Below, piece after piece: positions 5,949-39,701 of a DNA stretch of 64,000 nt. Numbering within the stretch: position 1 is the first letter of the stretch; every line of letters begins with the position of its first letter. Under the pieces are notes generated by a model that was not told the DNA's origin, did not search any database, and saw only the letters and a list, made by a program, of their open reading frames with translations. Source of the stretch: a virus (taxonomy: Duplodnaviria; Heunggongvirae; Uroviricota; Caudoviricetes); IMG/VR virus record IMGVR_UViG_3300017978_000250, positions 1 through 64,000 of that record; one strand, written 5' to 3'. The translations under genes were made by a program, and so were the position numbers.

Positions 5949-5977
5949 AGTATAACACCTTTAGTATTATTTGTCAA
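5949..5977 (-). promoter_or_regulatory. sigma70-type promoter (TTGACA-17-TATACT)
   Basis: Minus TTGACAAATAATACTAAAGGTGTTATACT upstream of natV. Confidence 0.55.
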
Positions 5978-6209
5978 CCTTTTTTGCCCATTTGCTGTCT
6001 GGAAAGGGGAAAAATTCTGTCTCAATTACAAAGAATTTGTGTCTACCTTTTGGGTTCTCTTGGTTGTACTCTTTCTGAGTAAAGTCTCGGTAAAAATCAG
6101 CATCCTCTTTTCGCTGGAATCCACGACTTTCAACTTTCCATGTTACTTTTTTGGAACAATGGCTAAGAGTATTTGTACGCATTACTAGAAACATATCAGT
6201 CCTTACCAA
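5967..6209 (-). CDS. hypothetical protein
   Basis: 80-aa ORF upstream of promoter P1. Confidence 0.4.
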   Translation of the reverse strand: MVRTDMFLVMRTNTLSHCSKKVTWKVESRGFQRKEDADFYRDFTQKEYNQENPKGRHKFFVIETEFFPFPDSKWAKKVDK

Positions 6210-6532
6210 CTAATCTGAACGCCGTAGTTTTGAATTGTTGGGCCGTTGCCGTTGTCGTCTGCTAAACCCCGTGGAACATATTTGTCACCGTCTAACCTAA
6301 TCTCAACACGATAACCCAATGTTTTGAGTTTGTCTGCTACTGCCTGTTGCAAGGGAGTGATAGTGTGATGTAGGTACTCAAACTGTTTCACGCTACCCAT
6401 ATCGATAAACACTTGACGCTTGCCACCTTCGGCAGCTTTTTTCACTATCCTCTCGACTGTATTCTTCAAGTAATCATTGACCTCTGCGCCACTTTGGTCA
6501 TACAGTTCTTTGGCTTCTTTTGCAGTAATCAT
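6203..6532 (-). CDS. hypothetical protein
   Basis: 109 aa; N-terminus (ITAKEAKEL) paralogous to ORF 6921-7463. Confidence 0.55.
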   Translation of the reverse strand: MITAKEAKELYDQSGAEVNDYLKNTVERIVKKAAEGGKRQVFIDMGSVKQFEYLHHTITPLQQAVADKLKTLGYRVEIRLDGDKYVPRGLADDNGNGPTIQNYGVQISW

Positions 6533-6780
6533 TTTAATCCCAATACAACTTTTTCAGCATCAGTCAATTTAGCCAATGCACGTTTACGAAGTTCACCATC
6601 TTTGAATGCTTTGAGTACATCCCAGCTGTCAAGAATCACGAATTCTGTTTCATATACCGAATCGAACTTGTTCTTTGCCATCCATTCGTCTGCGGCTTCT
6701 TTGGTCTTAACGTAGTACCTGTGATTGTGACGGTCGCCACCATCCCAAACTTGAATGTCCCAGCATTTAATGATTTGCAT
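6529..6780 (-). CDS. hypothetical protein
   Basis: 83 aa; C-terminal AKLTDAEKVVLGLK tail paralogous to ORF 13354-13662. Confidence 0.55.
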   Translation of the reverse strand: MQIIKCWDIQVWDGGDRHNHRYYVKTKEAADEWMAKNKFDSVYETEFVILDSWDVLKAFKDGELRKRALAKLTDAEKVVLGLK

Positions 6781-6781
6781 T

Positions 6782-6922
6782 TTAACTCTCCTCTACTTCT
6801 GTAGCGTAACCTTCGGACTCAAGTTCATCAACAACTTCTTGGACTTCGGATTCTTCAATCGAGCATTCCTCAACGTGAAGTTCACCTTTCCAATAACCTT
6901 TGACTGTGTATGTTTTCATTTT
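6782..6922 (-). CDS. small acidic hypothetical protein
   Basis: Likely start MKTYTV with GGAG RBS; the longer track ORF would overlap its upstream neighbour. Confidence 0.4.
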   Translation of the reverse strand, partial: KMKTYTVKGYWKGELHVEECSIEESEVQEVVDELESEGYATEVEES

Positions 6923-7463
6923 ACCACTCCACAGTTGTAGCCATGTCAACAAATTGTGATTCGTTGTAGTAGAACCCAACTTTGTAGCCATCACCTTCAA
7001 GAATCATAACGGCTTGTTGCCAATCTTTCGATGCACTGTAACCACCATCAGCCCAGAACTTGTCACGCAACATAATATCACGTGCTTGTTGCCAATCTTT
7101 TGATGCACTGTAACCACCATCAGCCCAGAACTTGTCACGCAACATAATATCACGTTTGCCTTTAGTTGCGGCTTCACGAATCAAGGGATAGACTGCATCA
7201 ACCCGTTCTTGGACAGTGGGACCTGCAAGTTCGCGGGCTTCTTGTGCTGTGATTTTAGTCATCACGGGTTCCTTCACTTCTAAAAGTTTTTCAGTTGCTT
7301 TGCGATAAGAGATATAATAATCTCCGGTGTGTTCGTTTTTGAGACTTGCGACTTTGATTTTGGCTTCTGCCTCTGTCTCACATGTACCACCGATTCGTTG
7401 AGTAGAGTAACCACGACCTCCTGGGGCAGGGGGAAAGAATCGTTCAATAACTATTTCAAACAT
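6921..7463 (-). CDS. hypothetical protein carrying an internal 24-aa tandem duplication
   Basis: 180 aa; repeat RDIMLRDKFWADGGYSASKDWQQA occurs twice (72-bp DNA tandem repeat). Confidence 0.55.
   Translation of the reverse strand: MFEIVIERFFPPAPGGRGYSTQRIGGTCETEAEAKIKVASLKNEHTGDYYISYRKATEKLLEVKEPVMTKITAQEARELAGPTVQERVDAVYPLIREAATKGKRDIMLRDKFWADGGYSASKDWQQARDIMLRDKFWADGGYSASKDWQQAVMILEGDGYKVGFYYNESQFVDMATTVEW
7013..7156. repeat. 72-bp near-perfect tandem duplication (2 copies) inside ORF 6921-7463
   Basis: Copy A 7013-7084 and copy B 7085-7156 differ at about 2 positions. Confidence 0.8.
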
Positions 7464-7493
7464 CTTGTACCTCTTTTCTTACTCTATGACTAT

Positions 7494-7522
7494 ATTATAC
7501 AACCAAAGAGATTTATTGTCAA
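7494..7522 (-). promoter_or_regulatory. sigma70 consensus-type promoter
   Basis: Minus TTGACAATAAATCTCTTTGGTTGTATAAT. Confidence 0.65.
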
Positions 7523-7534
7523 GTTTTGGGCAAA

Positions 7535-7939
7535 TTAGTTTTTGTAGAGGACTGCAACTTTGGGGTAAGTGCAACCACTGCAACTTTGAAACAACACACG
7601 GTCGTTGCCAATTTCGTACTCTACATAGGTATAGTGCTTGTCTACATAACTCTTGCCTGAACGTTCACGTGAACCTTCAGCAACGAACCCAACTAATGTA
7701 CCAGTAACCTGTGTATTTTTGTAGTACTTTGTACTCTGGTCTGTCCACTCATAACTAACCATGTAAGCAATTCCTACTGGAATCAACAAGATTAAAAATA
7801 CATTAAACAATTTGTATTCTTCTTCACCGGTGATGTTAGAGTAAGCTGCCATCAAAAATACAACTAACATGAATACACAAACGATAACGAAACCTTTGTG
7901 TTCAACTACGATTGGGGCTAGTGGTTGCATTGTGTACAT
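7535..7939 (-). CDS. membrane protein
   Basis: Two to three hydrophobic helices at N-terminus; 134 aa. Confidence 0.55.
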   Translation of the reverse strand: MYTMQPLAPIVVEHKGFVIVCVFMLVVFLMAAYSNITGEEEYKLFNVFLILLIPVGIAYMVSYEWTDQSTKYYKNTQVTGTLVGFVAEGSRERSGKSYVDKHYTYVEYEIGNDRVLFQSCSGCTYPKVAVLYKN

Positions 7940-7970
7940 GTTAGTCCTGTTCTTTGCTGTCTAAGTATCT

Positions 7971-7999
7971 ATTATACAACCAAAACGATTATTTGTCAA
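7971..7999 (-). promoter_or_regulatory. sigma70 consensus-type promoter
   Basis: Minus TTGACAAATAATCGTTTTGGTTGTATAAT. Confidence 0.7.
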
Positions 8000-8014
8000 G
8001 TTTTGGGCAAAAAA

Positions 8015-8040
8015 ATACCCCGATTAACGGGGTATCAAAA
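8015..8040 (-). terminator. intrinsic terminator after rIIB
   Basis: ATACCCCG-attaa-CGGGGTAT followed on minus by T7. Confidence 0.65.
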
Positions 8041-8051
8041 AGTATTACTTT

Positions 8052-9020
8052 TTATGGTTTGCTTGGGCTTTGGGGCCAGCTTGCGTTAGTCTGTGTACTC
8101 GCTTGAGGGACGTAATACTCATAACGCTTGGTAACGTCATTAGTACCTTTGTCGAAACCTTCTGCATAGTCCTTACCAGAACCATTGTAGCCGTTTTCTT
8201 CCCAACCATCAGTGTAGCCACGATAGAATTCAGTCGAACCACGCTTAACTACTGGTGTCGGTGCCACGTAAGTGTTTGAGTTTGCATTAGCTTGCACTGG
8301 TTGAGTAAACTCAACTGCATCCTCAGGGTTTCTACCAACTTCACCAATCACTTCATATCGACATGTACGACCTTTTGTGTTGTTGTAGTCGTTTGGAATA
8401 GACACAACATCACGTGGGTTAATCTTAACGATAACAACACGTTCACCACCAAAGTGCTTCAAGTAGCCTTCAGAACAGAAGTGCAAACCATGTGAACAAG
8501 TGTTGTTTTGGTTATCATCAACCTTGTTACGAGCCATAGTCAAAACTTGACCTGGTGAGTTGTCCATTGTACCTGAGTACACGTCCTTGTAGTCACCACG
8601 AACTTTCTTGTAAGCCAAGAAATGACCATCTGGGGTGATTGGCAAGTTGTTCTTTTCCAAGAAGCCATACAATTCATCTACGGAACGCTTAGATGGGTTA
8701 TCCATCAAGTTCTCCATGAACTTAATGAGAGGTTCGATAGTGAAACCCTCAGTCAGCATTTGCACCATGCGAGTAGCAAGAGTGCCGTTGAACACTTCGC
8801 CGTCCCAGTACATTGTTTCGCCCTTGATGGACACTCGACCTTGACCGTAGTCTAGTACGACTTTCTTTGGCTCAATCACATTTTGCACAGTTTCCCAGTC
8901 ACCTGCTTTGATAGCATCAACAACCTTTTGATAGGTAATGTGTGTCTTAGAAATTGTGTGTGGCTTGTTGCCGATAACTACGGTAACATTGTTACCTTGA
9001 ATAATGAATGGATAACTCAT
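8052..9020 (-). CDS. rIIB: rIIB protein
   Basis: C-terminal block DNSPG...TCSHGLHFCSEGYLKHFG...VKINPRDVVSIPNDYN...RTCRYEV matches T4 rIIB family; immediately downstream of rIIA. Confidence 0.8.
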   Translation of the reverse strand: MSYPFIIQGNNVTVVIGNKPHTISKTHITYQKVVDAIKAGDWETVQNVIEPKKVVLDYGQGRVSIKGETMYWDGEVFNGTLATRMVQMLTEGFTIEPLIKFMENLMDNPSKRSVDELYGFLEKNNLPITPDGHFLAYKKVRGDYKDVYSGTMDNSPGQVLTMARNKVDDNQNNTCSHGLHFCSEGYLKHFGGERVVIVKINPRDVVSIPNDYNNTKGRTCRYEVIGEVGRNPEDAVEFTQPVQANANSNTYVAPTPVVKRGSTEFYRGYTDGWEENGYNGSGKDYAEGFDKGTNDVTKRYEYYVPQASTQTNASWPQSPSKP

Positions 9021-9021: not shown

Positions 9022-11163
9022 TTAGATTCCTTTTACTTGGTCAATCAAATTAACATACTCTGCTACAGCCGATTTTTCAACGCCGTAACTCAGAGACTTT
9101 AACAGAGGATAACGAGTAAACACATCGTAAACATCCTTTGTATACTTATCAATCAATGCTTGTGGGCTAGTAGAAGTTTTCACATCATACCGAGAACACA
9201 ACCATTGAGTTGCATTTTGCACAGTCGAATCGATAGCCTTCACATCTTTGAATGTGTTCACTAATTTAGCGAACGGGCTATTTGCATCAATCTTGTCACT
9301 ATTATACTTGATAAAATCATTAATGTCAAGGTTTTGTTTTACCAAACCCATGATATTTGCCTTATCCATTTTAGCAAGTTTTTCAACAATGAATGTATCC
9401 AACTCAACCCAATTCTTTTGCAGTTTGACCCATTCAATGTCAGTCTTACGAACACCATGAATTGTACCAGTGTAAACACCAGACTTTTCTAAGTAACGAC
9501 CCAATGTCTTCACATCGGAGCACTTGTTCAAAGCAGTGAAGCCTGACAATGGGATGTAGTAGTAAGTTGTTTTGTTGTCAAACGTATCAGCTTTACCAGC
9601 ATCACGCCAGACCAACTCACCGCTGCCACCCCAACCACGACTGCGACCTTCTTCCAAACGCATGATAGTAACGTTCTTACCCATTGTTGAGGTACGTTCT
9701 TTTTCAAGCAACGAACTAGCCTGCATGAAATAACTTTCAGGAGGGTTTGCCAACAACTTTTTGAAACCTACCAAGTCAATTGGCTTAGTCTTGTCGTATG
9801 CTTCAATGACAAACACGTGGACACTATTAAGACCTTGATCCTTGATGAAAGAACTTTCTTTCACGTGATGCTTGGCTCTCTCAACAGCACCAACTTTAGT
9901 GTCATTGATTACGAAACGTGCTTCCTCAGCAATAGAAATATCCCATTCATTGTAATGAGCCTGTGCAGTAGCATCATAACGATGTGCAACTTTCATGTTA
10001 GTACATGCGGTGTAATTACGACTCTTGCTAAAGCCACGAATGATAATGTTGTGGTTAGTTTTCAGGTCACTTTCTGGGATAGCAAAACGATGTAAACGTG
10101 CCCAAGATTGGCTAGTGTTAACATACTCAAACTTGGTGTCGGTGCAATACTTAGTAACAGCAGACTGCCACAAATATGTGCTTGACTTCTTAGTAAGGAA
10201 CAAAGCCTTTTCCCAAGTGTTTGCGATACCGTCAGCTTCCTTAGCAACCACACCAGCGAGTGCCGCGTTTACTTCTTCCAACTTACGCTTGATTGATTCA
10301 ATTGTTTGTGGAATGTACGACAAGCCTTCACGTGACGCTTGAAAGTCAAGTTCACCGATACCAAATTCCATCATTAAGCCGCAATGCAACAAGTGACGCA
10401 ATTCACCGATAGTGTTATCAGCAGAAGGAATCTCGATTGGATATGCAATGTTACCCATGATAGCATAGCTACCACGACTATCTTTCATACTGTGAACACC
10501 GGGGATGATGTTTTCAGTTTCGTATTCAACCTTAGAAACTTCAAACTTGTCAACACCAGAGACAACTGGTTGTTGTTTGAACCACTTGTAAACTGAACGA
10601 GCCTCTTGACGGAACTTGTCAAAGTCATAACGGTCGTTAACTGAGAATTTAACCTCGACGCCATTTGGTTCGTCGGTGTTTTCAGTCATCATTTGGGCGA
10701 TACTAGGTACGCCAGATTCGTTGATAAACGCGGTGTAGACACCTTTGACACCATTCTGTACAGCAGTGACCGTGAAGTTATCGGTGTAAGAGAAAGGTGA
10801 CTTTGATCCAAGACCCAAAGCGCCGATGAATTCGTTGGACGCTGTTTTAGTACTTTCAAAGTAAGTGGTGTAGATGTTTGTGACCTGGTCAGCTGAAAGA
10901 CCTGTTCCATAGTCACGAATTGAGAACCAAGGTTCGAGTGAGTTGGGGAGGTGTACATCAAACGGCGTAGTGCTCTTGCCGGCAGCCACGTGCGAGTCCA
11001 CTGCGTTACATGATAGTTCACGAATGATAGCACGGACTTTGTTTGCATACAAACCTGATGAAAGAATTGAGAAAGCCTTCGCACTATTGCGAATACGAAA
11101 TTCACCAATTTGACCGACGTTTGAAACAACAGCTTGGTCTTGGGGAGCAGAATTTAGAATCAT
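9022..11163 (-). CDS. rIIA: rIIA protein (GHKL/HATPase-like N-terminal domain)
   Basis: 713 aa; N-terminal NAVDSH...IRDYGTGL HATPase-like motifs; gene order rIIA then rIIB as in T4. Confidence 0.8.
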   Translation of the reverse strand: MILNSAPQDQAVVSNVGQIGEFRIRNSAKAFSILSSGLYANKVRAIIRELSCNAVDSHVAAGKSTTPFDVHLPNSLEPWFSIRDYGTGLSADQVTNIYTTYFESTKTASNEFIGALGLGSKSPFSYTDNFTVTAVQNGVKGVYTAFINESGVPSIAQMMTENTDEPNGVEVKFSVNDRYDFDKFRQEARSVYKWFKQQPVVSGVDKFEVSKVEYETENIIPGVHSMKDSRGSYAIMGNIAYPIEIPSADNTIGELRHLLHCGLMMEFGIGELDFQASREGLSYIPQTIESIKRKLEEVNAALAGVVAKEADGIANTWEKALFLTKKSSTYLWQSAVTKYCTDTKFEYVNTSQSWARLHRFAIPESDLKTNHNIIIRGFSKSRNYTACTNMKVAHRYDATAQAHYNEWDISIAEEARFVINDTKVGAVERAKHHVKESSFIKDQGLNSVHVFVIEAYDKTKPIDLVGFKKLLANPPESYFMQASSLLEKERTSTMGKNVTIMRLEEGRSRGWGGSGELVWRDAGKADTFDNKTTYYYIPLSGFTALNKCSDVKTLGRYLEKSGVYTGTIHGVRKTDIEWVKLQKNWVELDTFIVEKLAKMDKANIMGLVKQNLDINDFIKYNSDKIDANSPFAKLVNTFKDVKAIDSTVQNATQWLCSRYDVKTSTSPQALIDKYTKDVYDVFTRYPLLKSLSYGVEKSAVAEYVNLIDQVKGI

Positions 11164-11218
11164 GTGTGTTCCTATGTTTTCGACTTAAAGAAATATTATA
11201 CTTGATTTTGGATTAATT

Positions 11219-11398
11219 GTCAACCGAAACTTCATCCAAGTCATATCGCAAATCATCAATGGCATCATTGATAGCATGGATAGAAATTTCAGCACTGTCG
11301 GAATCACCTAATGCACCACGCACTAAGTCTTTGGCTTCCTCTAGCTTTTGGATTGCTAAAGTCAAACGATTCAGTTGGTCTTTGTTGAGCATTTTGAT
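11219..11398 (-). CDS. small hypothetical protein (59 aa)
   Basis: Manual translation MLNKDQLNRLTLAIQKLEEAKD...; just below track cutoff; downstream of promoter P4. Confidence 0.35.
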
Positions 11399-11518: not shown

Positions 11519-11547
11519 ATTATACAACCAAAACGCTTTATTGTCAA
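11519..11547 (-). promoter_or_regulatory. sigma70 consensus-type promoter
   Basis: Minus TTGACAATAAAGCGTTTTGGTTGTATAAT. Confidence 0.65.
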
Positions 11548-11550: not shown

Positions 11551-11868
11551 TTAGACCGAAACAATCTCAATTTTACCCTCGTCAATCCACTTGTCCCAAG
11601 TCAAGCAGGCGTAACCGTTATTGAAACTTTTGTATACAGTTCCATCCTTCTTTATCTTCTTGAAAAAGTAGGACTGACGCTGGGGCTTCAATTTGTCTGC
11701 TCCAGTGCAAAACGGGGCAAGTATGTACTCAACACGATATAAACCTGTTTTCCAGCAATCCTTATTGTAAACGCTAGGAATTGTTTCTTTTAGTTTTACA
11801 ACTGAACCTACTTGGAGCTTGAAATTGAATGACATAGTATTACCTTTAGTCAATGTAAGCAATGACAC
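11551..11868 (-). CDS. hypothetical protein
   Basis: 105-aa ORF. Confidence 0.5.
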   Translation of the reverse strand: MSLLTLTKGNTMSFNFKLQVGSVVKLKETIPSVYNKDCWKTGLYRVEYILAPFCTGADKLKPQRQSYFFKKIKKDGTVYKSFNNGYACLTWDKWIDEGKIEIVSV

Positions 11869-12139
11869 GAATGTACTCGGGACCGTAGTAAATTTCAGGA
11901 CTAGTCAGTTTTGGGATGCGACTTGTGAAACCTGCTTCGATAAACATGTCACGAGCAATTTCTAATACTTTACGACTATCACCGTAGACTGGGAAAACAA
12001 CTGAGCGGCGCTTGGGGTCATTCTCGGTAGTTTTCTCTGTATAGGTGTGTTCAACTGCACAGTTGGCAGCTTTGAATGCTTGGCGCAAGATAGCGCGGGC
12101 TTGTTTTGTAGTTGCAAACATTTTCGTTCCTTTTCTCAA
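11846..12139 (-). CDS. hypothetical protein
   Basis: 97-aa ORF downstream of promoter P5. Confidence 0.5.
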   Translation of the reverse strand: MRKGTKMFATTKQARAILRQAFKAANCAVEHTYTEKTTENDPKRRSVVFPVYGDSRKVLEIARDMFIEAGFTSRIPKLTSPEIYYGPEYIRVIAYID

Positions 12140-12150
12140 TCAATACATGT

Positions 12151-12179
12151 ATTATATGCCCAAAGTGATTATTTGTCAA
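12151..12179 (-). promoter_or_regulatory. sigma70 consensus-type promoter
   Basis: Minus TTGACAAATAATCACTTTGGGCATATAAT. Confidence 0.65.
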
Positions 12180-12236
12180 CCTTTGGGCATACATTTGTAA
12201 AGATACAACAGTTTGAAAAGGTAGTACTTCTGTTTC

Positions 12237-13115: not shown

Positions 13116-13354
13116 TTTGAATCTCTCAGTTTATCAAACAAATGTGCTTTGTCGTCAAGGTATTTGACGAATGAAATTTGGTCACGCCACTTTGCAAGTC
13201 GTGCCGCGAATCGTTCATTCCAACGAAGAAAGTCATCACGGAACCAGAATGGGTTAACGATTGCTAACAATAGTGTCACTAGCAAAGGCAGCGCACACCA
13301 AAACGTCATAAAGTAAAATACAATCTTGTATTTTTGCATTGGGGAAAGTTTCAT
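13112..13354 (-). CDS. small membrane protein
   Basis: 80 aa with hydrophobic helix. Confidence 0.45.
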   Translation of the reverse strand: MKLSPMQKYKIVFYFMTFWCALPLLVTLLLAIVNPFWFRDDFLRWNERFAARLAKWRDQISFVKYLDDKAHLFDKLRDSK

Positions 13355-13662
13355 TATTTGATTCCTAAAATTTTCTTTTCTTCGTCACTGAGTTTAGCAA
13401 GTGCATCTTTTTTAAGTTTTGCCTTACGTGCCCGTTCTGCCTTCGCTTCTTGCGCTTTGCGGTCGTCTTCTTGGTGTTTATCCCACCATTCACGAACCTC
13501 GTCATCTTTGAGTACGAGGAAGTCAGCGTGTCCTGATTTTACTAGTTCGGTCATCGCTTTACAAGCAATGCGGGCGAGTTTATCAGCCTCTGATTTGAGG
13601 CGTTTGATATCTCGGTCATTACTATCACTAGCCCAATTTGATTCATAACTCATGCAAGGCAT
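13354..13662 (-). CDS. hypothetical protein
   Basis: 102 aa; C-terminal AKLSDEEKKILGIK tail paralogous to ORF 6529-6780. Confidence 0.5.
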   Translation of the reverse strand: MPCMSYESNWASDSNDRDIKRLKSEADKLARIACKAMTELVKSGHADFLVLKDDEVREWWDKHQEDDRKAQEAKAERARKAKLKKDALAKLSDEEKKILGIK

Positions 13663-13691: not shown

Positions 13692-13720
13692 AGTATATCA
13701 CCAAAATGATTATTTGTCAA
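13692..13720 (-). promoter_or_regulatory. sigma70-type promoter (TTGACA-17-TATACT)
   Basis: Minus TTGACAAATAATCATTTTGGTGATATACT. Confidence 0.55.
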
Positions 13721-14709: not shown

Positions 14710-15225
14710 TTAAACCTTTACAGTAGCACGAGGGTCATTGATGGTAAGTGTCTGGTCTTCAACTTCATCACGGACAGTCAGTTTGCGATTCACTATACCG
14801 TAACTTGCAATGAAGGGCTTCTTGGCTATCTTTACAACTTCAACGCGGCGAACTTCATTCTTACTGGCAATCATAATCATATCACCCTCTTTGATTTCGT
14901 TGTTGTAACGGTCAAAGGGAACACACAAGTCCATGTAGGTGTCATCATAATTAACACCTTCTTCGGTGATTTCAACTTTGGGAGGACGAACACCTTGAAC
15001 GGGAAGTGGGCGATACAACGGACTAGCAACTTCACCCAACCAGATACCTTCGCATTCACCACGTTGATAGGTTTCGTCACGCTTAGCCATGATTTGTTCA
15101 TGGGTCATTTGTTCAATGACAAACTGGTCGGGGTAATCCTGAGTGCCGATTTGCTGACCATCAGCAACTAGACCCTTCATAGGACCTGAAAGAACTTTGT
15201 AACGTTTCATGTAAACTCGGCGCAT
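14710..15225 (-). CDS. hypothetical protein
   Basis: 171-aa ORF downstream of promoter P7. Confidence 0.55.
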   Translation of the reverse strand: MRRVYMKRYKVLSGPMKGLVADGQQIGTQDYPDQFVIEQMTHEQIMAKRDETYQRGECEGIWLGEVASPLYRPLPVQGVRPPKVEITEEGVNYDDTYMDLCVPFDRYNNEIKEGDMIMIASKNEVRRVEVVKIAKKPFIASYGIVNRKLTVRDEVEDQTLTINDPRATVKV

Positions 15226-15259: not shown

Positions 15260-15288
15260 ATTATATGCCCAAAATGATTATTTGTCAA
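15260..15288 (-). promoter_or_regulatory. sigma70 consensus-type promoter
   Basis: Minus TTGACAAATAATCATTTTGGGCATATAAT. Confidence 0.65.
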
Positions 15289-16894: not shown

Positions 16895-17100
16895 TGTAAG
16901 CCCTTTCCATTGAGTAGTTGGTCATGAATGACGATACCTTGTGCCTTAGACTTGAGCGCCTTACGCAGGTAGCGATTCTGTTCTTCTGTCGTTTCGGCCC
17001 AGTATGCGAAACCTTTGAGACAATCATAACGGTCGTAGTACCAAGTCAGCTTAGCCATTGCGGCGCCTAGTCTGTACCATGGATTATCAAAATCGTTCAT
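16891..17100 (-). CDS. hypothetical protein
   Basis: 69-aa ORF. Confidence 0.45.
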   Translation of the reverse strand: MNDFDNPWYRLGAAMAKLTWYYDRYDCLKGFAYWAETTEEQNRYLRKALKSKAQGIVIHDQLLNGKGLQ

Positions 17101-17438
17101 TACTTAACTCCGAATGTGTTCAATGCTGGTTGCAATGTGTTAATCAATTCTGTCTCACGTGCGTGTGCGGGACGCTTACCACGAACTACTTCAACCACAC
17201 CGAACACAAAACGCTCGGCACCATTTTCACGCAATGCACGAGACAAGCCCCAATCTTTGTTCTCAGCGAGGGCACGTTGCATGTGCTTTTGCATGCGGCG
17301 ATTCAATGTCTTACGCAAGTTACCTGCAAAGCAAACAGCAGTCAAACCAATGTAGTACTCAAGTGTTACTTTATCTTGGATAAAGTAAATCACTTGATTG
17401 CGGTCTGTTCTACGTTTGCGTGTGATTTTCGAGTTCAT
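17100..17438 (-). CDS. GIY-YIG nuclease domain protein
   Basis: VIYFIQDK...EYYIGLT GIY-YIG motif, conserved R and E downstream; 112 aa. Confidence 0.65.
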   Translation of the reverse strand: MNSKITRKRRTDRNQVIYFIQDKVTLEYYIGLTAVCFAGNLRKTLNRRMQKHMQRALAENKDWGLSRALRENGAERFVFGVVEVVRGKRPAHARETELINTLQPALNTFGVK

Positions 17439-17444: not shown

Positions 17445-17473
17445 ATTATATGCCCAAAACGATTATTTGTCAA
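17445..17473 (-). promoter_or_regulatory. sigma70 consensus-type promoter
   Basis: Minus TTGACAAATAATCGTTTTGGGCATATAAT. Confidence 0.65.
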
Positions 17474-17991
17474 CCGAAATTTTGTAACACTTTAGTAACA
17501 TATTCGTCACTACTATCACCCAAGTCTTTTTCGTCAGTAAAAAGTACTACATCTCCGAACTTTGCTAACTTACGGCCCGCGGCATCATTGTCACAAACGG
17601 CTACTACTTTTCTATTAAGACAAGTAAGCCAGTTACGCAAGTCGGGACTAGGGTTGTTAGACAGTACCGCTAACGCACTAAATCCACGCTGAGTGAGTCG
17701 GGCCGCATCGAACAGACCCTCACACACAAACACAACATGAGGGCTTAAATCCAGGCTTTCAACACCCCAGACAGCTAGAGTAGGAGTCTTTCTGTATGTG
17801 AAATACTTGCCTAGCTTGGGATTGTTGTTGGGCTTCTTGTCACCCTCAGGGCGATACTGTTGATAACCAACCAGTTGACCGCTGAGGTTATATAAGTAAA
17901 AAGTAGCAACACGTTCAACTTCATCGACCATTGGACGATGTAAGTCTACGTCAAGGTGACGACTTTTGAGGTGCTCTAATACTGTGTTCAT
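17470..17991 (-). CDS. Toprim-domain protein
   Basis: VFVCEGLFDA ... VAVCDNDAAGRKLA = Toprim E...DxD motifs. Confidence 0.6.
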   Translation of the reverse strand: MNTVLEHLKSRHLDVDLHRPMVDEVERVATFYLYNLSGQLVGYQQYRPEGDKKPNNNPKLGKYFTYRKTPTLAVWGVESLDLSPHVVFVCEGLFDAARLTQRGFSALAVLSNNPSPDLRNWLTCLNRKVVAVCDNDAAGRKLAKFGDVVLFTDEKDLGDSSDEYVTKVLQNFG

Positions 17992-18043
17992 GCCTCAATT
18001 ATAAACCCAAACTGATTATTAGTCAAGTTTGGGTTGTAGTGTT

Positions 18044-18235
18044 TTAGTTTACTTTTCGGTAATCTGCACGATAGTAGCAATCGGGGTCACCTGGGTCTTT
18101 GTTGTACTCTGCGACAAAAGCCTTTGCTTCGTCTTCGTTGTCAAAGAACTTGGTTCCCATATCACGTTGACCATAGCCTCGTTCGTATTCAGTCATAGAA
18201 ACTTTATACAGACCATTTACTTTAACTTCTGCCAT
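18044..18235 (-). CDS. hypothetical protein
   Basis: 63-aa ORF downstream of promoter P10. Confidence 0.45.
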   Translation of the reverse strand: MAEVKVNGLYKVSMTEYERGYGQRDMGTKFFDNEDEAKAFVAEYNKDPGDPDCYYRADYRKVN

Positions 18236-18264: not shown

Positions 18265-18293
18265 AGTATATAGCAAGTTGGATTATTTGTCAA
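18265..18293 (-). promoter_or_regulatory. sigma70-type promoter (TTGACA-17-TATACT)
   Basis: Minus TTGACAAATAATCCAACTTGCTATATACT. Confidence 0.55.
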
Positions 18294-24457: not shown

Positions 24458-24475
24458 TTTTTCTTTCAATGATGT

Positions 24476-26528: not shown

Positions 26529-26552
26529 AGTTTTTCCTTTCTGTGTGTATAT

Positions 26553-26618: not shown

Positions 26619-26636
26619 TTACTGTCTAAAGATGTT

Positions 26637-27713: not shown

Positions 27714-27790
27714 GAGATTCGAACTCTCGGAACACGTTAATGTTCGACGGTTTTCAAGACCGTTGCGTTAAACCACTCTGCCAAGTTTCC
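27701..27790 (-). tRNA. tRNA-Ser(UGA)
   Basis: Acceptor GGAAACU/AGUUUCC, anticodon loop CTTGAAA, long variable arm, TTCGAAT T-loop, encoded CCA. Confidence 0.75.
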
Positions 27791-27795
27791 ATTAT

Positions 27796-27871
27796 TGGTG
27801 GAGGTGACAGGGATCGAACCCGCTACCTATTGCTTGCAAAGCAACCGCTCTCCCAGATGAGCTACACCCCC
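27796..27871 (-). tRNA. tRNA-Ala(UGC)
   Basis: Anticodon loop TTTGCAA; G3:U70 pair in acceptor stem; encoded CCA. Confidence 0.7.
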
Positions 27872-27880
27872 CATTATTTC

Positions 27881-36312: not shown

Positions 36313-36380
36313 AACAGGATCGTTTTTGTCGCTAGACATCCAAAGTTAGCTTTTTGATTGCTGAACCGATCCTAAAACTG
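36313..36380 (-). ncRNA. Y-RNA-like stem element (copy v) with compensatory stem change
   Basis: 5' GUUUUAGGAUCGGUUCAGCAA ... 3' CGAUCCUGUUAU: AGGAUCG pairs with CGAUCCU where other copies have AGGAUAC/GUAUCCU. Confidence 0.5.
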
Positions 36381-36382
36381 AG

Positions 36383-36449
36383 GCCCCTGTGAGAGGAATT
36401 GAACCTCTACCACCGCGCGCCGTGTATGCTCCCATTACACTACACAGGG
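36383..36449 (-). ncRNA. 67-nt tRNA-like RNA lacking an anticodon arm
   Basis: Perfect acceptor CCCTGTG/CACAGGG, D arm GTGT-AATGGGAGCAT-ACAC, T arm AGAGG-TTCAATT-CCTCT, only 13 nt where anticodon and variable arms should be. Confidence 0.5.
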
Positions 36450-36456
36450 ATTGAAT

Positions 36457-36576
36457 TGGTGCCGCCGGAAGGATTCGAACCTCCATTACTTCCTTGAAAT
36501 GGAATTTTATGTTGCTGTAAGTACTCTTGTCAGAGTAGACCTTTTTAAGCGTCCTAGCCAATTAGACGACAGCGGC
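36457..36576 (-). ncRNA. 120-nt tRNA-like RNA: anticodon arm replaced by about 65-nt insertion carrying UACUUACAGCAAC motif
   Basis: Acceptor GCCGCTG/CGGCGGC plus CCA, D arm GTC-TAATTGGCTAG-GAC, T arm GGAGG-TTCGAAT-CCTTC; inserted hairpin TACTCT-GACA-AGAGTA followed by TACTTACAGCAAC. Confidence 0.5.
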
Positions 36577-36582
36577 ATTGTT

Positions 36583-36657
36583 TGGAGGGTCGTACAAGAT
36601 TCGAACTTGTGACTGCTGGTTTCGAAGACCAGAACTCTTCCACTGAGTTAACGACCC
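36583..36657 (-). tRNA. tRNA-Arg(UCG)
   Basis: Anticodon stem CTGGT/ACCAG, loop CTTCGAA, T loop TTCGAAT, CCA. Confidence 0.7.
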
Positions 36658-36820
36658 ATTGAATAGGTTTTTGAGAGACCAACTATCTTTCTCAAGGACT
36701 CATTGGCTTGTCTCGATTGAGAGAGTTTAACGACCTTGTGTAGCTACTGGCGTGTCAGTCACAAGAATAGGGACCTAGCGCACAAGGGACTCAATCTCAT
36801 CGTCTATCTCAAAACTTGAA

Positions 36821-36901
36821 TGTGTGTTGCAGGATTCGAACCTACATCCGGAGGTTGTTACGCCTCATGTAATGACGCCCTAACATTTATACTAAACACA
36901 C
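36821..36901 (-). tRNA. tRNA (81 nt, no encoded CCA), anticodon unresolved
   Basis: Acceptor GTGTGTT/AACACAC, T arm GTAGG-TTCGAAT-CCTGC; internal region does not give a clean cloverleaf by eye. Confidence 0.4.
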
Positions 36902-36907
36902 AAAACT

Positions 36908-36982
36908 TGGTGCTCCATGACAGACTTGAACTGCCTTCTCCGGACTACAAAACCGGTGTTCTACCACGTGAACTAATAGAGC
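36908..36982 (-). tRNA. tRNA-Thr(UGU) (Gln not excluded)
   Basis: D stem GTTC/GAAC, anticodon stem CCGGT/TCCGG with loop TTTGTAG, T loop TTCAAGT, CCA. Confidence 0.6.
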
Positions 36983-37113
36983 ATAATATAACAGGATACA
37001 TCTAGTGACCGAGTATGAATCGGTTGCTCTACCTTAGAGCGTATTTGGCAAACGCCAAATGTTGGAATCGAACCAACTGACTTTGTAAGTCGTTGCTGTA
37101 AGTATCCTAAAAC
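36983..37113 (-). ncRNA. Y-RNA-like RNA (copy i) with circularly permuted tRNA-like domain
   Basis: 5' GUUUUAGGAUACUUACAGCAAC; then T arm GTTGG-TTCGATT-CCAAC; acceptor stem closed by loop ATTTGGC-GTTT-GCCAAAT; D arm GCTC/GAGC; anticodon-like arm ACCGA-TTCATAC-TCGGT; 3' GUAUCCUGUUAUA pairs with 5' AGGAUAC; flanked by a tRNA 3' end and a tRNA 5' end. Confidence 0.55.
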
Positions 37114-37188
37114 TGGCGATGCATGGGAGAATCGAACTCCCGTCTCCGGATAGACAATCCGGGATAATGACCATTATATGAATGCACC
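37114..37188 (-). tRNA. tRNA, anticodon GUC-like (Asp?)
   Basis: Anticodon stem CCGGA/TCCGG with loop TTGTCTA, T arm GGGAG-TTCGATT-CTCCC, CCA; AT-rich D arm. Confidence 0.5.
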
Positions 37189-37195
37189 TTAAACT

Positions 37196-37273
37196 TGGCT
37201 CCGTGACTAGGGATCGAACCTAGCTTATTTCTGATTAACAGTCAGACGCCTACACCTTGCTTGCTCTCACGGA
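37196..37273 (-). tRNA. tRNA-Asn(GUU)-like
   Basis: Anticodon stem TCTGA/TCAGA, loop CTGTTAA, T arm CTAGG-TTCGATC-CCTAG, CCA. Confidence 0.55.
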
Positions 37274-37280
37274 ATAAAAT

Positions 37281-37355
37281 TGGTAGCCACGGACAATTTT
37301 GAAATGTCGACCTATCGCTTATCAAGCGAGTGCTCTTCCTCTGAGCTACGCGGCT
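37281..37355 (-). tRNA. tRNA-Ile(GAU)
   Basis: D stem GCTC/GAGC, loop TTGATAA, CCA. Confidence 0.65.
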
Positions 37356-37372
37356 ATATGTTTGGTGCCTCC

Positions 37373-37447
37373 ACCTGGGTTCGAACCAGGGACTCCCACC
37401 TTATCAAGATGATACTCTACCACTGAGTTATAGAGGCATTAATTGTT
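37373..37447 (-). tRNA. tRNA-Ile(GAU)-like (second copy)
   Basis: Loop TTGATAA, T arm CCTGG-TTCGAAC-CCAGG, CCA. Confidence 0.6.
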
Positions 37448-37457
37448 TGGTGGATGT

Positions 37458-37532
37458 AAGTAGATTCGAACTACTGACCTGCTCCGTATGAAGGAGATGC
37501 ACTACCGCTGTGCTATACATCCATTGTATATT
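37458..37532 (-). tRNA. tRNA-Met(CAU)
   Basis: Loop TTCATAC, D stem GCAC/GTGC, T loop TTCGAAT, CCA. Confidence 0.7.
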
Positions 37533-37541
37533 GGTGCGTGA

Positions 37542-37616
37542 TGAAAGGATTGAACTTTCGACCTCTTCAATGTCACTGAAGCGTTCTACCACTGAACTAA
37601 TCACGCATGACAGGAT
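37542..37616 (-). tRNA. tRNA-Val(GAC)
   Basis: Anticodon stem CTTCA/TGAAG with loop GTGACAT, D stem GTTC/GAAC, CCA. Confidence 0.65.
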
Positions 37617-37728
37617 ACATTTACTTTTTGCTGGCTGCTCTACCATTGAGCTACATCCTTTCGGAGATGGGACTCGAACCCACAACAGGCTAGTTGGACA
37701 GTAAAAATTGCTGTTAGTATCCTAAAAC
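37617..37728 (-). ncRNA. Y-RNA-like RNA (copy ii) with permuted tRNA-like domain and GNRA-capped acceptor-like stem
   Basis: 5' GUUUUAGGAUACUAACAGCAAUUUUUACUG; T arm GTGGG-TTCGAGT-CCCAT; stem CATCTCC-GAAA-GGATG; D arm GCTC-AATGGTA-GAGC; 3' GCCAGCAAAAAGUAAAUGUAUCCUGUC pairs back to the 5' end (AGGAUAC/GUAUCCU plus UUUUU/AAAAA); sits exactly between tRNA-Trp 3' end and tRNA-Val 5' end. Confidence 0.55.
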
Positions 37729-37802
37729 TGGCGTCCCCCCAGGGAGTCGAACCCCGGCCTGCGGATTTGGAATCCGTAATGCTACCGTAACACTTGGGAG
37801 AC
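37729..37802 (-). tRNA. tRNA-Trp(CCA)
   Basis: Loop TTCCAAA, T arm CCGGGG-TTCGACT-CCCTGG, CCA. Confidence 0.8.
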
Positions 37803-37809
37803 ATAAAAC

Positions 37810-37886
37810 TGGAACACGGGGTGAGATTCGAACTCACGAAAAACTGGTTTGCAATCAGTCACATTAGACCACTCTGTCACCCGTGC
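37810..37886 (-). tRNA. tRNA-Cys(GCA)-like (second copy)
   Basis: Loop TTGCAAA with A:C 31:39, T arm GTGAG-TTCGAAT-CTCAC, CCA. Confidence 0.5.
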
Positions 37887-37894
37887 ATAAACTT

Positions 37895-37968
37895 TGGTGC
37901 TCAAACGTAGAATCGAACTACGATATCTGTCATACCAAGACAGTGTTCTTCCATTAAACTATATGAGC
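37895..37968 (-). tRNA. tRNA-Thr(GGU)
   Basis: Perfect anticodon stem CTGTC/GACAG, loop TTGGTAT, CCA. Confidence 0.8.
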
Positions 37969-37970
37969 AT

Positions 37971-38047
37971 TGGCGCCACCGAAGAGATTCGAACTCCTGA
38001 CTCCTTCGTTCGTAGCGAAGTACTCTAATCCACTGAGTTACGGCGGC
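37971..38047 (-). tRNA. tRNA-Arg(ACG)
   Basis: Anticodon stem CTTCG/CGAAG, loop CTACGAA, D stem GCTC/GAGT, CCA. Confidence 0.8.
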
Positions 38048-38148
38048 ATAAATTGCTGGCAGTCCTTGGGGCTTGTACCCCTGCGTTTTCTAAGTCGTGT
38101 CCCGTCTGCCGTAGGACGCACGAGCGCAGCTTTCTTCTGGCCAGAATC

Positions 38149-38224
38149 TGGCACCCCCTGATGGACTCGAACCACCGCATGTCGGAATCAAAATCCGATG
38201 CCTTACCAACTTGGCGAAGAGGGT
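38149..38224 (-). tRNA. tRNA-Gln(UUG)
   Basis: Perfect anticodon stem TCGGA/TCCGA, loop TTTTGAT, T arm GGTGG-TTCGAGT-CCATC, CCA. Confidence 0.75.
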
Positions 38225-38300
38225 ATATAAAACAGGATAGAATTTTTACTGGTTGAATTAAAAGTTCAGAGTATAAATGTTGCTGTTACTATCCTAAAAC
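38225..38300 (-). ncRNA. Y-RNA-like stem element (copy iii), no tRNA-like domain
   Basis: 5' GUUUUAGGAUAGUAACAGCAAC ... 3' CUAUCCUGUUUUAUAU; AGGAUAG pairs with CUAUCCU; bounded by the tRNA 3' end at 38301 and the tRNA-Gln 5' end. Confidence 0.5.
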
Positions 38301-38375
38301 TGGTGGAGACCGAGGGAGTTGAACCCTTCTAGTCAGCAATCTTGCAAGGATCACCCGTAGCCCGCTACTGTCCCC
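38301..38375 (-). tRNA. tRNA-like gene, anticodon uncertain (UGC-like)
   Basis: Acceptor GGGGACA/GGTCTCC, T loop TTCAACT, CCA; contains ATTGCTGA motif. Confidence 0.4.
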
Positions 38376-38381
38376 ATATCT

Positions 38382-38467
38382 TGGTGGTGCGTGAAGGAAT
38401 CGAACCTAATTGCTGCCACTACACTTTTAAGCAACTGTTTTACAGACAGCCGTGTAGAACACACACC
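38382..38467 (-). tRNA. 86-nt tRNA-like gene with long extra arm, GUA-like loop
   Basis: Acceptor GGTGTGT/ACGCACC plus CCA, TTCGATT T loop, internal hairpin CTGT-CTGTAAA-ACAG, GTTGCT motif. Confidence 0.4.
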
Positions 38468-38562
38468 ATTAACTAATTTGTAGAGTACGAAACCATCTGT
38501 ACACTTACGCTACTTGACTTCTCACACCCGGGTGTTTACGTCTGGGTCATCACTACAAAACT

Positions 38563-38638
38563 TGGTACTGAGTACGGGAATCGAACCCGTCTTTCCGACT
38601 TGAAAGGCCAGCGTCCTAAACCGATAGACGAACCCAGT
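38563..38638 (-). tRNA. tRNA-Glu(UUC)-like (second copy)
   Basis: Loop CTTTCAA, D stem GTCT/GGAC, T arm ACGGG-TTCGATT-CCCGT, CCA. Confidence 0.55.
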
Positions 38639-38646
38639 ATAAATTG

Positions 38647-38720
38647 TGGTCACCGCGGGCAGAGTCGAACTGCCGCTTCCTGTATCCAAGACAGGGATGC
38701 TACCGTAACATTTCGCGGAG
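38647..38720 (-). tRNA. tRNA-Pro(UGG)-like (second copy)
   Basis: Perfect anticodon stem CCTGT/ACAGG, loop CTTGGAT, T arm GGCAG-TTCGACT-CTGCC, CCA; U2:U71 mismatch. Confidence 0.6.
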
Positions 38721-38727
38721 ATAAATT

Positions 38728-38801
38728 TGGTGCGGGGTAAGGGAGTTGAACCCTTGACTAAACGTTGGCAACGTTTGATTTTACCGTTAAACTAACCACG
38801 C
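38728..38801 (-). tRNA. tRNA-Gly(GCC)-like (second copy)
   Basis: Perfect anticodon stem AAACG/CGTTT, loop TTGCCAA, T arm AAGGG-TTCAACT-CCCTT, CCA. Confidence 0.6.
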
Positions 38802-38808
38802 ATAAACT

Positions 38809-38883
38809 TGGTAGGGGTGCTTGGAATCGAACCAAGATTAGCGAGTTCAAAGCCCGCGGTGATAACCATTACACTACACCCCA
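38809..38883 (-). tRNA. tRNA-Gln(UUG)-like with U1/U72 mismatch
   Basis: Acceptor TGGGGTG, anticodon stem GCGGG/CTCGC, loop CTTTGAA, T arm CTTGG-TTCGATT-CCAAG, CCA. Confidence 0.6.
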
Positions 38884-39267
38884 ACAAATACTATTCATTA
38901 GTATATAAGCAGTGCCCGTCAGAAGGATACTGTACTTTTCATCTTATTATACTAATGAATAGCATCTTTCGATGCTATGATAGGGTTGATACCCTACCCA
39001 GTGATTTTAGTCTCTGCATTATCGCTACAGATTTCATCCTACTGTCCGCCCATTCGATACACTTAACGCTGTATTCCGGCTCTCGTTGCCTATTCACGTT
39101 TGAGTTTAACGAGCTTTCAGGACGTGCCTTACTTTCTTGTCAAACTCTTTTTGATTGAGATATCGTTGAACTTTATCTTCAATCAATTTTTTTCTTTCTT
39201 CCTCAGTGTAAGAATGATTCTTCAACCATTCAGACCTGTCATTCTTCAATTCTTTTATGTCCATATA

Positions 39268-39305
39268 AACAAAAACCCCTGAGACTTTTAGTTCCCAGGG
39301 GTTTC
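39268..39305. terminator. bidirectional intrinsic terminator separating tRNA region from downstream island
   Basis: AAAAACCCCTGAG-acttttagtt-CCCAGGGGTTT with A/T runs on both sides. Confidence 0.6.
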
Positions 39306-39561
39306 ATAAAACTTTAGAGTAGTTACTTTAAGCGTAACCTGCTCCTTCTATGAAACTCCCTGGTAGCCCCTCATCATTATATGATGTGCGAATACTTGGG
39401 TTAAACGTACCTGCAAAGGCTGACACGGGTTGCTGTGGTAACCACATGCCCAAATGTCTTAGCGATTTACAAGTAATATTTTTCATAGTCTTTTATTTAG
39501 TCCTGGTTAAAAATTTCTTCAATTTAATAGTGTTTTTTTCACTTTTTGTTTCGATGTGTCT

Positions 39562-39590
39562 ATTATATAACAGGTTTCATTTGTTGTCAA
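39562..39590 (-). promoter_or_regulatory. sigma70 consensus-type promoter
   Basis: Minus TTGACAACAAATGAAACCTGTTATATAAT. Confidence 0.6.
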
Positions 39591-39672
39591 CACTTTTTTA
39601 AAGTATTTTCAATTTTGTTACCCGAAACATAGAGACTCTTGTTTCATTGTTGATTTCTCAACTCATGCATGT

Positions 39673-39701
39673 ATTATAGCAGGTTTATCATTTACTGTCA
39701 A
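39673..39701 (-). promoter_or_regulatory. sigma70 consensus-type promoter
   Basis: Minus TTGACAGTAAATGATAAACCTGCTATAAT; overlaps start region of the first plus-strand island gene. Confidence 0.6.

Follow-up and report, generated by a model that had tools for sequence, protein, structure and literature searches.

The 64,000-nt stretch analysed here (positions 1 to 64,000 of IMG/VR record IMGVR_UViG_3300017978_000250, from a virus of the Caudoviricetes), referred to as the window, has a family of consensus promoters with the geometry TTGACA-N17-TATAAT. They are found on the minus strand, mostly in front of the genes of a leftward block of approximately 36 kb. Judging from their sequence, these are very probably early promoters for the sigma-70 RNA polymerase (RNAP) of the host, and many of them appear to double as recombination cassettes similar to the promoter early stem-loop (PeSL) elements. 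The PeSL-type device is already known in T4-type phages; the present family is a further case of it and not a new kind of biology.

The exact pattern TTGACA-N17-TATAAT occurs 18 times, always on the minus strand, with 0.01 sites expected from dinucleotide shuffles (none of 100 shuffles reached 18). With one mismatch permitted in a hexamer, six further copies with the 17-nt spacer bring the total to 24; four of the six have TATACT (those ending at 4166, 5977, 13720 and 18293), one has TACAAT (34763) and one has TTGACT (18026). There is one more copy with a 16-nt spacer (29638-29665), and only one comparable site on the plus strand. The family spans approximately 4.1-46.2 kb, with 23 of the 24 copies inside the leftward block between 4 and 40 kb, at a density of about one per 1.5 kb. 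A first-pass annotation of this DNA described about 19 near-identical 40-bp modules between 5949 and 39701, in which TTGACA, a 17-nt spacer and TATAAT or TATACT follow each other on the minus strand. The family is real (18 exact, 6 and 1 copies), the geometry is as described and every coordinate given was correct. However, the copies are not near-identical, since only about 11 have both conserved spacer blocks and the rest share mainly the hexamers, and the range was too narrow, as copies also occur at 4138-4166, 39900-39928 and 46215-46243.

The copies lie on the strand of the genes they precede. Most are 18-56 nt before an ATG with a Shine-Dalgarno (SD) sequence or 12-40 nt before a tRNA gene, which agrees with the placement proposed earlier, before early transcription units and inside the tRNA array. 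As in sigma-70-type promoters, the hexamers are 17 +/- 1 bp apart and are located upstream of, and co-oriented with, transcription units. The genes served are rIIA, rIIB, NAMPT, NMNAT, Pnk, Rnl, GIY-YIG and HNH genes, tRNA genes and ORFans (open reading frames, ORFs, with no PHROG or Pfam function). Approximately 11 of the 24 copies have the full spacer motif (class I) and precede ORFans and homing endonuclease genes; the other 13 or so have only the hexamers (class II) and lie before rIIA and rIIB, the genes for NAD salvage and tRNAs. Where the -10 is weakened (TATACT or TACAAT), it is mostly compensated by TGn, which is present in only seven copies and mainly in these. Five cassettes overlap the end of the upstream gene, whose TGA stop is part of the -35 TTGACA (4163-4166, 13717-13720, 17470-17473, 18290-18293 and 22473-22476); this extreme gene packing leaves no room at those five for an upstream hairpin arm or an UP element.

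The promoters and their associated stem-loops and terminators are listed below. Each name is P plus the right-end window coordinate of the minus-strand site, the gene given is the one that the promoter is predicted to drive, and types A to C refer to the 5' untranslated region (5'UTR) types described further on.

4138-4166, minus strand: P4166, TTGACA-17-TATACT with TGn; NAMPT gene 2682-4082, 49-nt leader; 6-bp stem inside the spacer (4144-4163); a small upstream ORF ends with TGA inside TTGACA.
5949-5977, minus strand: P5977, TTGACA-17-TATACT with TGn; NMNAT/Nudix (natV-like) gene 4867-5886.
7494-7522, minus strand: P7522, class I cassette, type C 5'UTR; ORF 6921-7463.
7971-7999, minus strand: P7999, class I cassette, type B 5'UTR; ORFan 7535-7939; 7-bp stem enclosing the -35.
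8014-8036, minus strand: intrinsic terminator, 9-bp stem and T7, abutting P7999 upstream to form a terminator-promoter composite.
9301-9329, minus strand: P9329, perfect hexamers with a class II spacer, inside the rIIA coding sequence and about 270 nt upstream of rIIB (8052-9020).
11195-11223, minus strand: P11223, promoter of rIIA (9022-11163), 25-nt leader.
11519-11547, minus strand: P11547, class I; ATG 7 nt past the -10, small ORFs downstream.
12151-12179, minus strand: P12179, class I cassette, type A 5'UTR; ORFan 11846-12121.
12155-12191: hairpin of P12179, 11-bp perfect stem (TATGCCCAAAG / CTTTGGGCATA) enclosing the -35; z = -6.2.
13692-13720, minus strand: P13720, class I cassette (TATACT with TGn), type C 5'UTR; ORFan 13354-13662; stop TGA of the preceding gene inside TTGACA.
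15260-15288, minus strand: P15288, class I cassette, type B 5'UTR; ORFan 14710-15225.
17445-17473, minus strand: P17473, class I; GIY-YIG endonuclease gene 17100-17438; stop TGA of the Toprim gene inside TTGACA.
17998-18026, minus strand: P18026, class I (TTGACT); small Toprim gene 17470-17991, ATG 7 nt past the -10.
18004-18035: hairpin of P18026, 10-bp stem (AACCCAAACT / AGTTTGGGTT) enclosing the -35; z = -5.7.
18265-18293, minus strand: P18293, TATACT; 63-aa ORF 18044-18235; stop TGA of the preceding gene inside TTGACA.
22448-22476, minus strand: P22476, class I cassette, type A-like 5'UTR; operon 20299-22423 (65-aa ORF, phosphoesterase, Pnk, Rnl); stop TGA of the preceding gene inside TTGACA.
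24476-24504, minus strand: P24504, about 12 nt upstream of tRNA-Leu(gag) 24381-24457; hexamers intact in six relatives at 75-84% local identity.
29638-29665, minus strand: P29665, variant with a 16-nt spacer and TATACT, abutting tRNA-Leu(taa) 29545-29629.
30086-30114, minus strand: P30114, 27 nt upstream of tRNA-Leu(tag); -35 in the 3' arm of the next feature.
30108-30138: inverted repeat (TTGTCAAACAGT / ACTGTTTGACAA) with 12-nt perfect arms (30108-30119 and 30127-30138) and a 7-nt loop, overlapping the -35 of P30114; z = -3.4.
34053-34081, minus strand: P34081, within the tRNA array and 172 nt before tRNA-Glu; no consensus promoter lies closer upstream of the tRNA block and GOLLD RNA that follow it.
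34337-34365, minus strand: P34365, class I-like with a type A-like leader, in the tRNA array.
34735-34763, minus strand: P34763, TACAAT with TGn, 39 nt upstream of tRNA-Thr.
34740-34776: hairpin of P34763, 10-bp stem (ATCACAACAA / TTGTTGTGAT) enclosing the -35; z = -8.0.
35390-35418, minus strand: P35418; HNH endonuclease gene 34786-35346; 8-bp stem between the -35 and the spacer (35397-35416).
39272-39305, minus strand: strong intrinsic terminator, 13-bp stem and T-run, separating the tandem head promoters from the tRNA array.
39562-39590, minus strand: P39590, head of the leftward block, followed by a 52-aa ORF (39328-39486) and then by the terminator above.
39673-39701, minus strand: P39701, head of the leftward block, TGn present, divergent from a plus-strand gene.
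39900-39928, minus strand: P39928, perfect hexamers, antisense inside the plus-strand gene at about 39723-40973; first of three tandem promoters.
46215-46243, minus strand: P46243, isolated, perfect hexamers, in the radical-SAM island about 11 nt upstream of ORF 45301-46197.

The orientation reported earlier for P39590 and P39701 was right, as both face the small ORF (52 aa plus stop) and the terminator, with the third copy, P39928, just upstream of them. The initial transcribed sequence predicted for P39590, AGACACATCGAAAC (region 39562-39555), resembles the start region ...ACAC(C/A)CATCGA(A/C)AAC of PeSLs in phage RB49 (L045, positions 46488 and 47732). This likeness may be due to a common start-site preference or to coincidence.

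The spacer holds more information than sigma-70 needs, as had been claimed from the first reading. Outside the hexamers, the logo of the 24 window copies has information at S-36, A-29, A-26, A-25, T-24, C-23, T-18, K-17, G-16, T-15 and A-6, and at -1/+1, where it reads CA. The conserved spacer positions form two blocks, AwwAATC at -29 to -23 (A at -29, AATC at -26 to -23) and TTTGG at -20 to -16. The same positions are conserved across the clade in 119 independent clusters, which are the promoters of relatives that remain after dropping every copy matching the search pattern: A-29 is present in 76%, A-26 in 91%, A-25 in 81%, T-24 in 84%, C-23 in 63%, T at -20 to -18 in approximately 67% and G-16 in 65%. 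Information is about 0 bits at -22, -21, -14 and -13 (1.2 bits at -26 against 0.0 at -21). Since the blocks are separated by free positions in clusters free of the search pattern, the conservation is position-specific and not mere identity by descent. The full motif never occurs outside promoters in the window, and it shows neither dyad nor direct-repeat symmetry. Comparison of orthologous sites gives a conservation of 226 of 228 positions (99%) for the hexamers, 88% for the spacer and 88-93% for the flanks, so the spacer evolves no more slowly than its surroundings.

Two known elements were considered for these blocks and rejected on position. The first-pass annotation suggested an UP-like function, but the blocks lie between the hexamers, and an UP element would lie upstream of the -35 (approximately -40 to -60); the logos have only A at -40/-39 and a purine at -37 upstream of the -35, with information near 0 beyond -41. 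TTTGG is also not an extended -10 (TGn at -15/-14), as the conserved G is at -17/-16 and therefore offset by 2-3 bp. A scan of bacterial genomes for the extended motif found it in only five contigs of metagenome-assembled genomes (MAGs). One, from a Lake Erken bin, is probably a phage fragment. The other four look like unrelated bacterial promoters (L040, L041, L043 and L044, binned as Saccharibacteria, Patescibacteria, Eubacteriales and Moranbacteria); in these, TTGACAAwwAATCnnTTTGGGTGTATAAT lies among ordinary bacterial genes, even tblastx shows no relation to the window, and the unselected triplet GTG is the same in 4 of 4. The most likely role of the spacer positions is to optimise contacts with RNAP or the shape of the DNA; in some copies they also supply the 3' arm of a stem-loop. 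The contact or shape explanation is favoured because of the T4 precedent discussed below, the lack of symmetry, the occurrence in promoter register only and the same motif in four unrelated MAG contigs.

Three features go beyond the first-pass annotation: CCCAAA/TTTGGG hairpins in a subset of copies, conservation through discrete 5'UTR types down to the ATG, and behaviour as recombination modules. In the hairpin subset, the TTTGG(G) block is the 3' arm and the 5' arm, CCCAAA, is just upstream of the -35. Perfect 10-11 bp stems enclose the -35 at P12179, P18026 and P34763 with three different sequences (folding z-scores of -5.7 to -8.0). P30114, P35418 and P4166 have other stems and a terminator abuts P7999, which gives 7 of 24 window copies with a stem-loop or terminator. 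The palindrome at 30108-30138 is as first noted, with the -35 of P30114 in its promoter-proximal arm. Among the relatives, stems of >=9 bp occur in 6 of 149 clusters (0.3 expected), while terminators abut 9.5% of promoters compared with 0.6% of random positions, and stems are present at approximately 10%. The hairpin is not a general cause of the spacer consensus, since most TTTGG copies have no upstream arm.

The exact module TTGACAAATAATCNTTTTGGNNNTATAAT was found in 38 stretches of IMG/VR contigs. Many of these loci are syntenic relatives at 66-94% identity, and others share just the promoter and leader (approximately 55 bp). Together the 38 loci (332 kb) have 169 sites of the same geometry, confined to a single strand in 37 of 38. 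The shared unit is a cassette of approximately 60 bp, consisting of the promoter, one of a few 5'UTR types and the SD, which precedes many unrelated ORFs. Type A (TATAAT-ACATGTATTGATTGAtTAAAGGAG-N5-7-ATG) is found before at least 10 unrelated ORFs and type B (TATAAT-AGATACTTAGACAGCAAaGAACAGGA-N6-8-ATG) before at least 8, and the homology of both units ends at the ATG. Cassettes of types A, B and C are conserved from approximately -40 to the ATG. The early genes of the window have no paralogs among them, so gene duplication was rejected as the source of the promoter and leader likeness. The commonest type A leader (window 12130-12150; also L002, L005, L012, L015, L019, L023, L028, L030, L032 and L033) begins with a two-codon mini-ORF (ATG TAT TGA) and holds TTGATTGATTAA, which places stops in all three frames just upstream of the SD. 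These stops may insulate the gene from upstream translation or may reflect plain AT-richness.

Gene content is highly variable among the relatives, and several changes have their junctions in the cassettes. The small Toprim gene of the window is flanked on its two sides by P18026 and P17473. The gene is absent from L020 and L014, each of which has a single chimeric cassette whose upstream half resembles the P18026 context and whose downstream half resembles P17473 and the GIY-YIG gene. In L018, from a phage 94% identical to this one, a type B cassette lies between the same two orthologous genes that flank the type A cassette of P12179 in the window; the swapped tract runs from approximately -38 to the SD, and the arm pairing is kept in both versions. 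In L016 and L028, modules that the window has at distant places meet at cassettes. All four combinations ("gametes") of spacer-end trinucleotide and UTR type are seen, as are all four of block-1 variant and UTR type, and this mosaicism points to exchange within the cassette itself. Of the homology breakpoints, 19 are in cassettes, with 9.7 expected under a uniform null.

One module has a different arrangement. The GIY-YIG gene (17100-17438) lacks an SD and has its ATG exactly 7 nt past the -10 of P17473. Six diverged relatives (L013, L014, L019, L020, L022 and L037) keep this spacing although the six bases in between differ, and in L013 the promoter and GIY-YIG module is the sole homology to the window. 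The same 7-nt geometry is found at the Toprim gene (ATG at 17991) and at the small ORF at 11512. The GIY-YIG gene is probably expressed from a leaderless mRNA on a mobile promoter-plus-endonuclease module.

PeSLs have been described in RB49/phi1, T4/PST and KVP40/nt-1 (Arbiol et al. 2010, PMC2839356; Comeau et al. 2014, PMC4122927). They are strong sigma-70-like early promoters (near-perfect TTGACA-N17-TATAAT in RB49/phi1) that finish on their 3' side with an SD and an ATG and have a stem-loop whose position varies and can overlap the -35. They cluster in front of ORFans in hyperplastic regions, where they provide the homology for shuffling modules (PMC2839356, PMC4122927). The formation of excised mini-circles by recombination between flanking copies also belongs to the PeSL concept. 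The cassettes of the window share the near-perfect hexamers and spacing, the conservation of approximately 60-100 bp down to the SD and ATG, and the clustering before ORFans in a variable early region. They also occur at indel, replacement and rearrangement junctions and form chimeras, and a minority of them have stem-loops between the boxes, over the -35 or just upstream. The CCCAAA(A)/(T)TTTGGG pairing is similar in kind to the nt-1/KVP40 PeSL stem A3-4G3-loop-C3T3-4. Unlike in the described PeSLs, a stem-loop or terminator is present in only a minority of copies, the spacer consensus is clade-specific, the 5'UTRs fall into discrete types and the lineage is an uncultivated freshwater one.

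The family also resembles the early promoters of T4-like phages, which have G or G/C at -36, an A-rich region at -40 to -44, a GT-rich region 5' of -12 and C at -3 to -1, with G at -33 in RB49, RB43 and Aeh1, and which are found 5' of novel ORFs and tRNA genes (Nolan et al. 2006, PMC1524935). The 24-copy and 119-cluster logos have S at -36, A at -40/-39, the GT-rich stretch 5' of -12, C at -1 and G at -33, although the A-rich stretch here is limited to -40/-39. The placement before rIIA/rIIB, the Pnk/Rnl operon, NAD-salvage genes, novel ORFs and tRNA genes is T4-type as well. The promoter for rIIB inside rIIA (P9329) recalls the PrIIB promoters listed for T4, whose early promoters have consensus regions beyond the known elements that are attributed to RNAP contacts (Hinton 2010, PMC2988021). 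Unlike in T4, the -35 is a perfect TTGACA instead of GTTTAC, and few copies other than those with a weakened -10 have TGn. The AwwAATC and TTTGG blocks are not described for T4-type early promoters (PMC1524935, PMC2988021). They are also absent from the RB49 promoters (L045), which were extracted directly for this comparison; the T4 GenBank record has no annotated promoters.

The family suggests the following mechanism. Right after DNA entry, the host RNAP with its primary sigma factor would read these promoters, whose perfect hexamers, optimal 17-bp spacing and extra favourable positions should allow them to out-compete host promoters. They would thereby drive the leftward early block of approximately 36 kb, the 44-tRNA array and the GOLLD RNA. 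About half of the promoters would serve as a standard portable expression cassette of approximately 60-100 bp before ORFans and homing endonuclease genes, in the order optional terminator or stem-loop, -35, AwwAATC-NN-TTTGG-NNN, -10, fixed 5'UTR type, SD and ATG. Because the cassettes are near-identical, the recombination machinery of the phage could use them as homology patches. By the PeSL mechanism, genes bracketed by cassettes would be inserted, deleted, replaced or moved, and the cassettes would be converted into one another.

Several points weigh against this interpretation. The window does not place the phage among the T4-type phages, as its rIIA reaches no more than 38% identity with either the Aeromonas T4-like or the PA5oct-like jumbo phages. 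The strong position-specific spacer consensus is absent from the RB49 PeSLs, and the known RNAP contacts do not obviously account for it, since it is not TGn and is offset by 2-3 bp. A stem-loop or terminator is present in only about 30% of the window copies and about 20% in the relatives, so most copies are plain consensus promoters and not composite PeSLs. Finally, the enrichment of breakpoints in cassettes is only about 2-fold, and the null is uniform rather than intergenic.

The likeness beyond the hexamers could instead be functionless and reflect the ancestry of a single cassette family homogenised by gene conversion or recombination (concerted evolution). The conversion of cassettes and the chimeras are direct evidence of such a process, the full-motif copies are those before mobile and ORFan genes, and orthologous spacers drift at the rate of their flanks. 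However, homogenisation predicts even conservation, and the profile of the 119 clusters goes from 0.0 bits at -21 to 1.2 bits at -26. There is also free reassortment between the two blocks, the spacer-end trinucleotide and the UTR types, so the conserved positions persist across recombinant backgrounds. Concerted evolution clearly contributes, but as a complete explanation it is contradicted by the uneven information profile and is unlikely. It is also possible, though rather improbable, that the CCCAAA...TTTGGG pairing serves mainly to form a structure, either a hairpin in read-through RNA or a cruciform in the DNA, within which the promoter just happens to lie; it would then act as attenuator, terminator, processing site or recombination signal. 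The 10-12 bp perfect stems have different sequences at the same position, pairing is maintained across the L018 cassette swap, and an RB49 PeSL stem-loop terminated transcription in a reporter (PMC2839356). Most TTTGG copies have no upstream arm, though, and several have coding sequence there with the stop inside TTGACA. In addition, no U-run follows the hairpins, and P7999 is served by a separate canonical terminator.

Another possibility is that the spacer blocks are the binding site of a clade-specific phage protein, injected or made early, that boosts the class I promoters or later shuts them off. This would be an extra layer over sigma-70 comparable in logic to T4 MotA/AsiA or Alt. It would fit the position-specific conservation (63-91% of the 119 clusters, with free positions between), the confinement of the motif to promoters and the two promoter classes with different gene sets; the absence of the motif from RB49 PeSLs also indicates that it is not generic to this promoter type. 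On the other hand, no candidate DNA-binding regulator was identified among the window proteins and the motif has no symmetry. Its identical form in four unrelated MAG contigs fits an RNAP or DNA-shape optimum better, orthologous spacers are only 88% conserved (flanks 88-93%, hexamers 99%), and the T4 precedent ascribes the extra consensus to RNAP contacts (PMC2988021). A dedicated binding site is therefore doubtful. Equally speculative is a wider version in which the spacer motif and the fixed 5'UTR types are a regulatory code of the clade, by which a phage factor switches the ORFan-cassette class as a block. Such a factor, itself quite hypothetical, might bind DNA at the spacer or bind or cleave RNA at the leaders, and would act apart from the hexamer-only promoters. 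If true, the code would imply a new sigma-70-accessory regulator outside the characterised T4 MotA/AsiA/Alt systems. Host sigma-70 promoters with PeSL-like cassette behaviour remain the preferred interpretation.

The phage lineage is uncultivated, freshwater and large. The window has no nucleotide match among 50,697 phage records, and its rIIA is 36-38% identical to its best matches in the phage collection (no protein exceeds 38%), which are from PA5oct-like jumbo Pseudomonas phages and Aeromonas T4-like phages. The minus-strand block has rIIA, rIIB, NAMPT, NMNAT/Nudix, Ro/TROVE-like, Pnk, phosphoesterase, Rnl, GIY-YIG and HNH genes, many unannotated ORFs and 44 tRNA genes found with ARAGORN, with one more found with Rfam at 30487-30583. 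The 64-kb window contains no core structural or replication genes from which membership of the T4-type lineage (Straboviridae) could be judged. From its predicted genes, the minus-strand block would be the hyperplastic early region of a lytic phage that is large and T4-like in its early gene content.

The strong early promoters of T5 (PN25-type) and similar coliphage promoters have consensus hexamers, an A/T-rich spacer, conserved sequence past the -10 with a TATAATAGAT start, and TTGA motifs in the leader. The window family resembles them in these features, but the gene content here is T4-like or jumbo-like and not T5-like. A T5-like phage was rejected given the rIIA/rIIB, Pnk, Rnl and NAD-salvage genes and the lack of a DNA match to any phage record. 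The idea that a primase gene has been split into pieces by cassettes and a homing endonuclease was also unsupported: 17470-17991 is a stand-alone small Toprim protein, and the small ORFs flanking it have no primase signal.

The tRNA array is very large (24381-38883, minus strand), has duplicated isoacceptors and contains the HNH endonuclease gene (34786-35346). No consensus promoter lies between the terminator at 39272-39305 and the first tRNA (38883). A GOLLD RNA (Rfam RF02032) is located inside the array at 31568-32033 on the minus strand, with a full-length match (model 1-416/416), a score of 208 bits against a gathering score of 150, and E = 2e-57; tRNA-Lys(ctt) (31898-31970) is nested within it. 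GOLLD RNAs in phage tRNA islands, with tRNAs in the linker, are documented (PMC12286853). A gene for a Ro/TROVE-like RNA-binding protein (DUF2828/DUF7788; PHROG 850; 25110-26528, minus strand) adjoins the tRNA/GOLLD array and the Pnk-Rnl RNA-repair genes, and these form an RNA-centred neighbourhood. From approximately 40000 to 64000 there is an island with lower GC (about 37%), genes on both strands and only one consensus promoter (46215-46243). It encodes radical-SAM, B12-binding and SPASM-domain proteins (46997-48244, 49060-50568, 51945-53411 and 56847-58310) and small paralogous ORF families (53413-56045), and may be a phage-carried peptide- or cofactor-modification cluster.

The promoter family provides a map of early transcription units for annotation and a marker of hyperplastic regions, and its members are natural, compact promoter-plus-leader modules that are predicted to be very strong. 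Although they come only from metagenomic contigs, the footprints are unusually clean, with a cassette that is chimeric at the site of a gene deletion, a swap of cassettes between genomes 94% identical and a 60-bp unit before more than 10 unrelated genes. The PeSL-type mechanism, as most probably read here, would thus extend to an uncultivated clade of large freshwater phages that is far from the cultured T4-type pairs.

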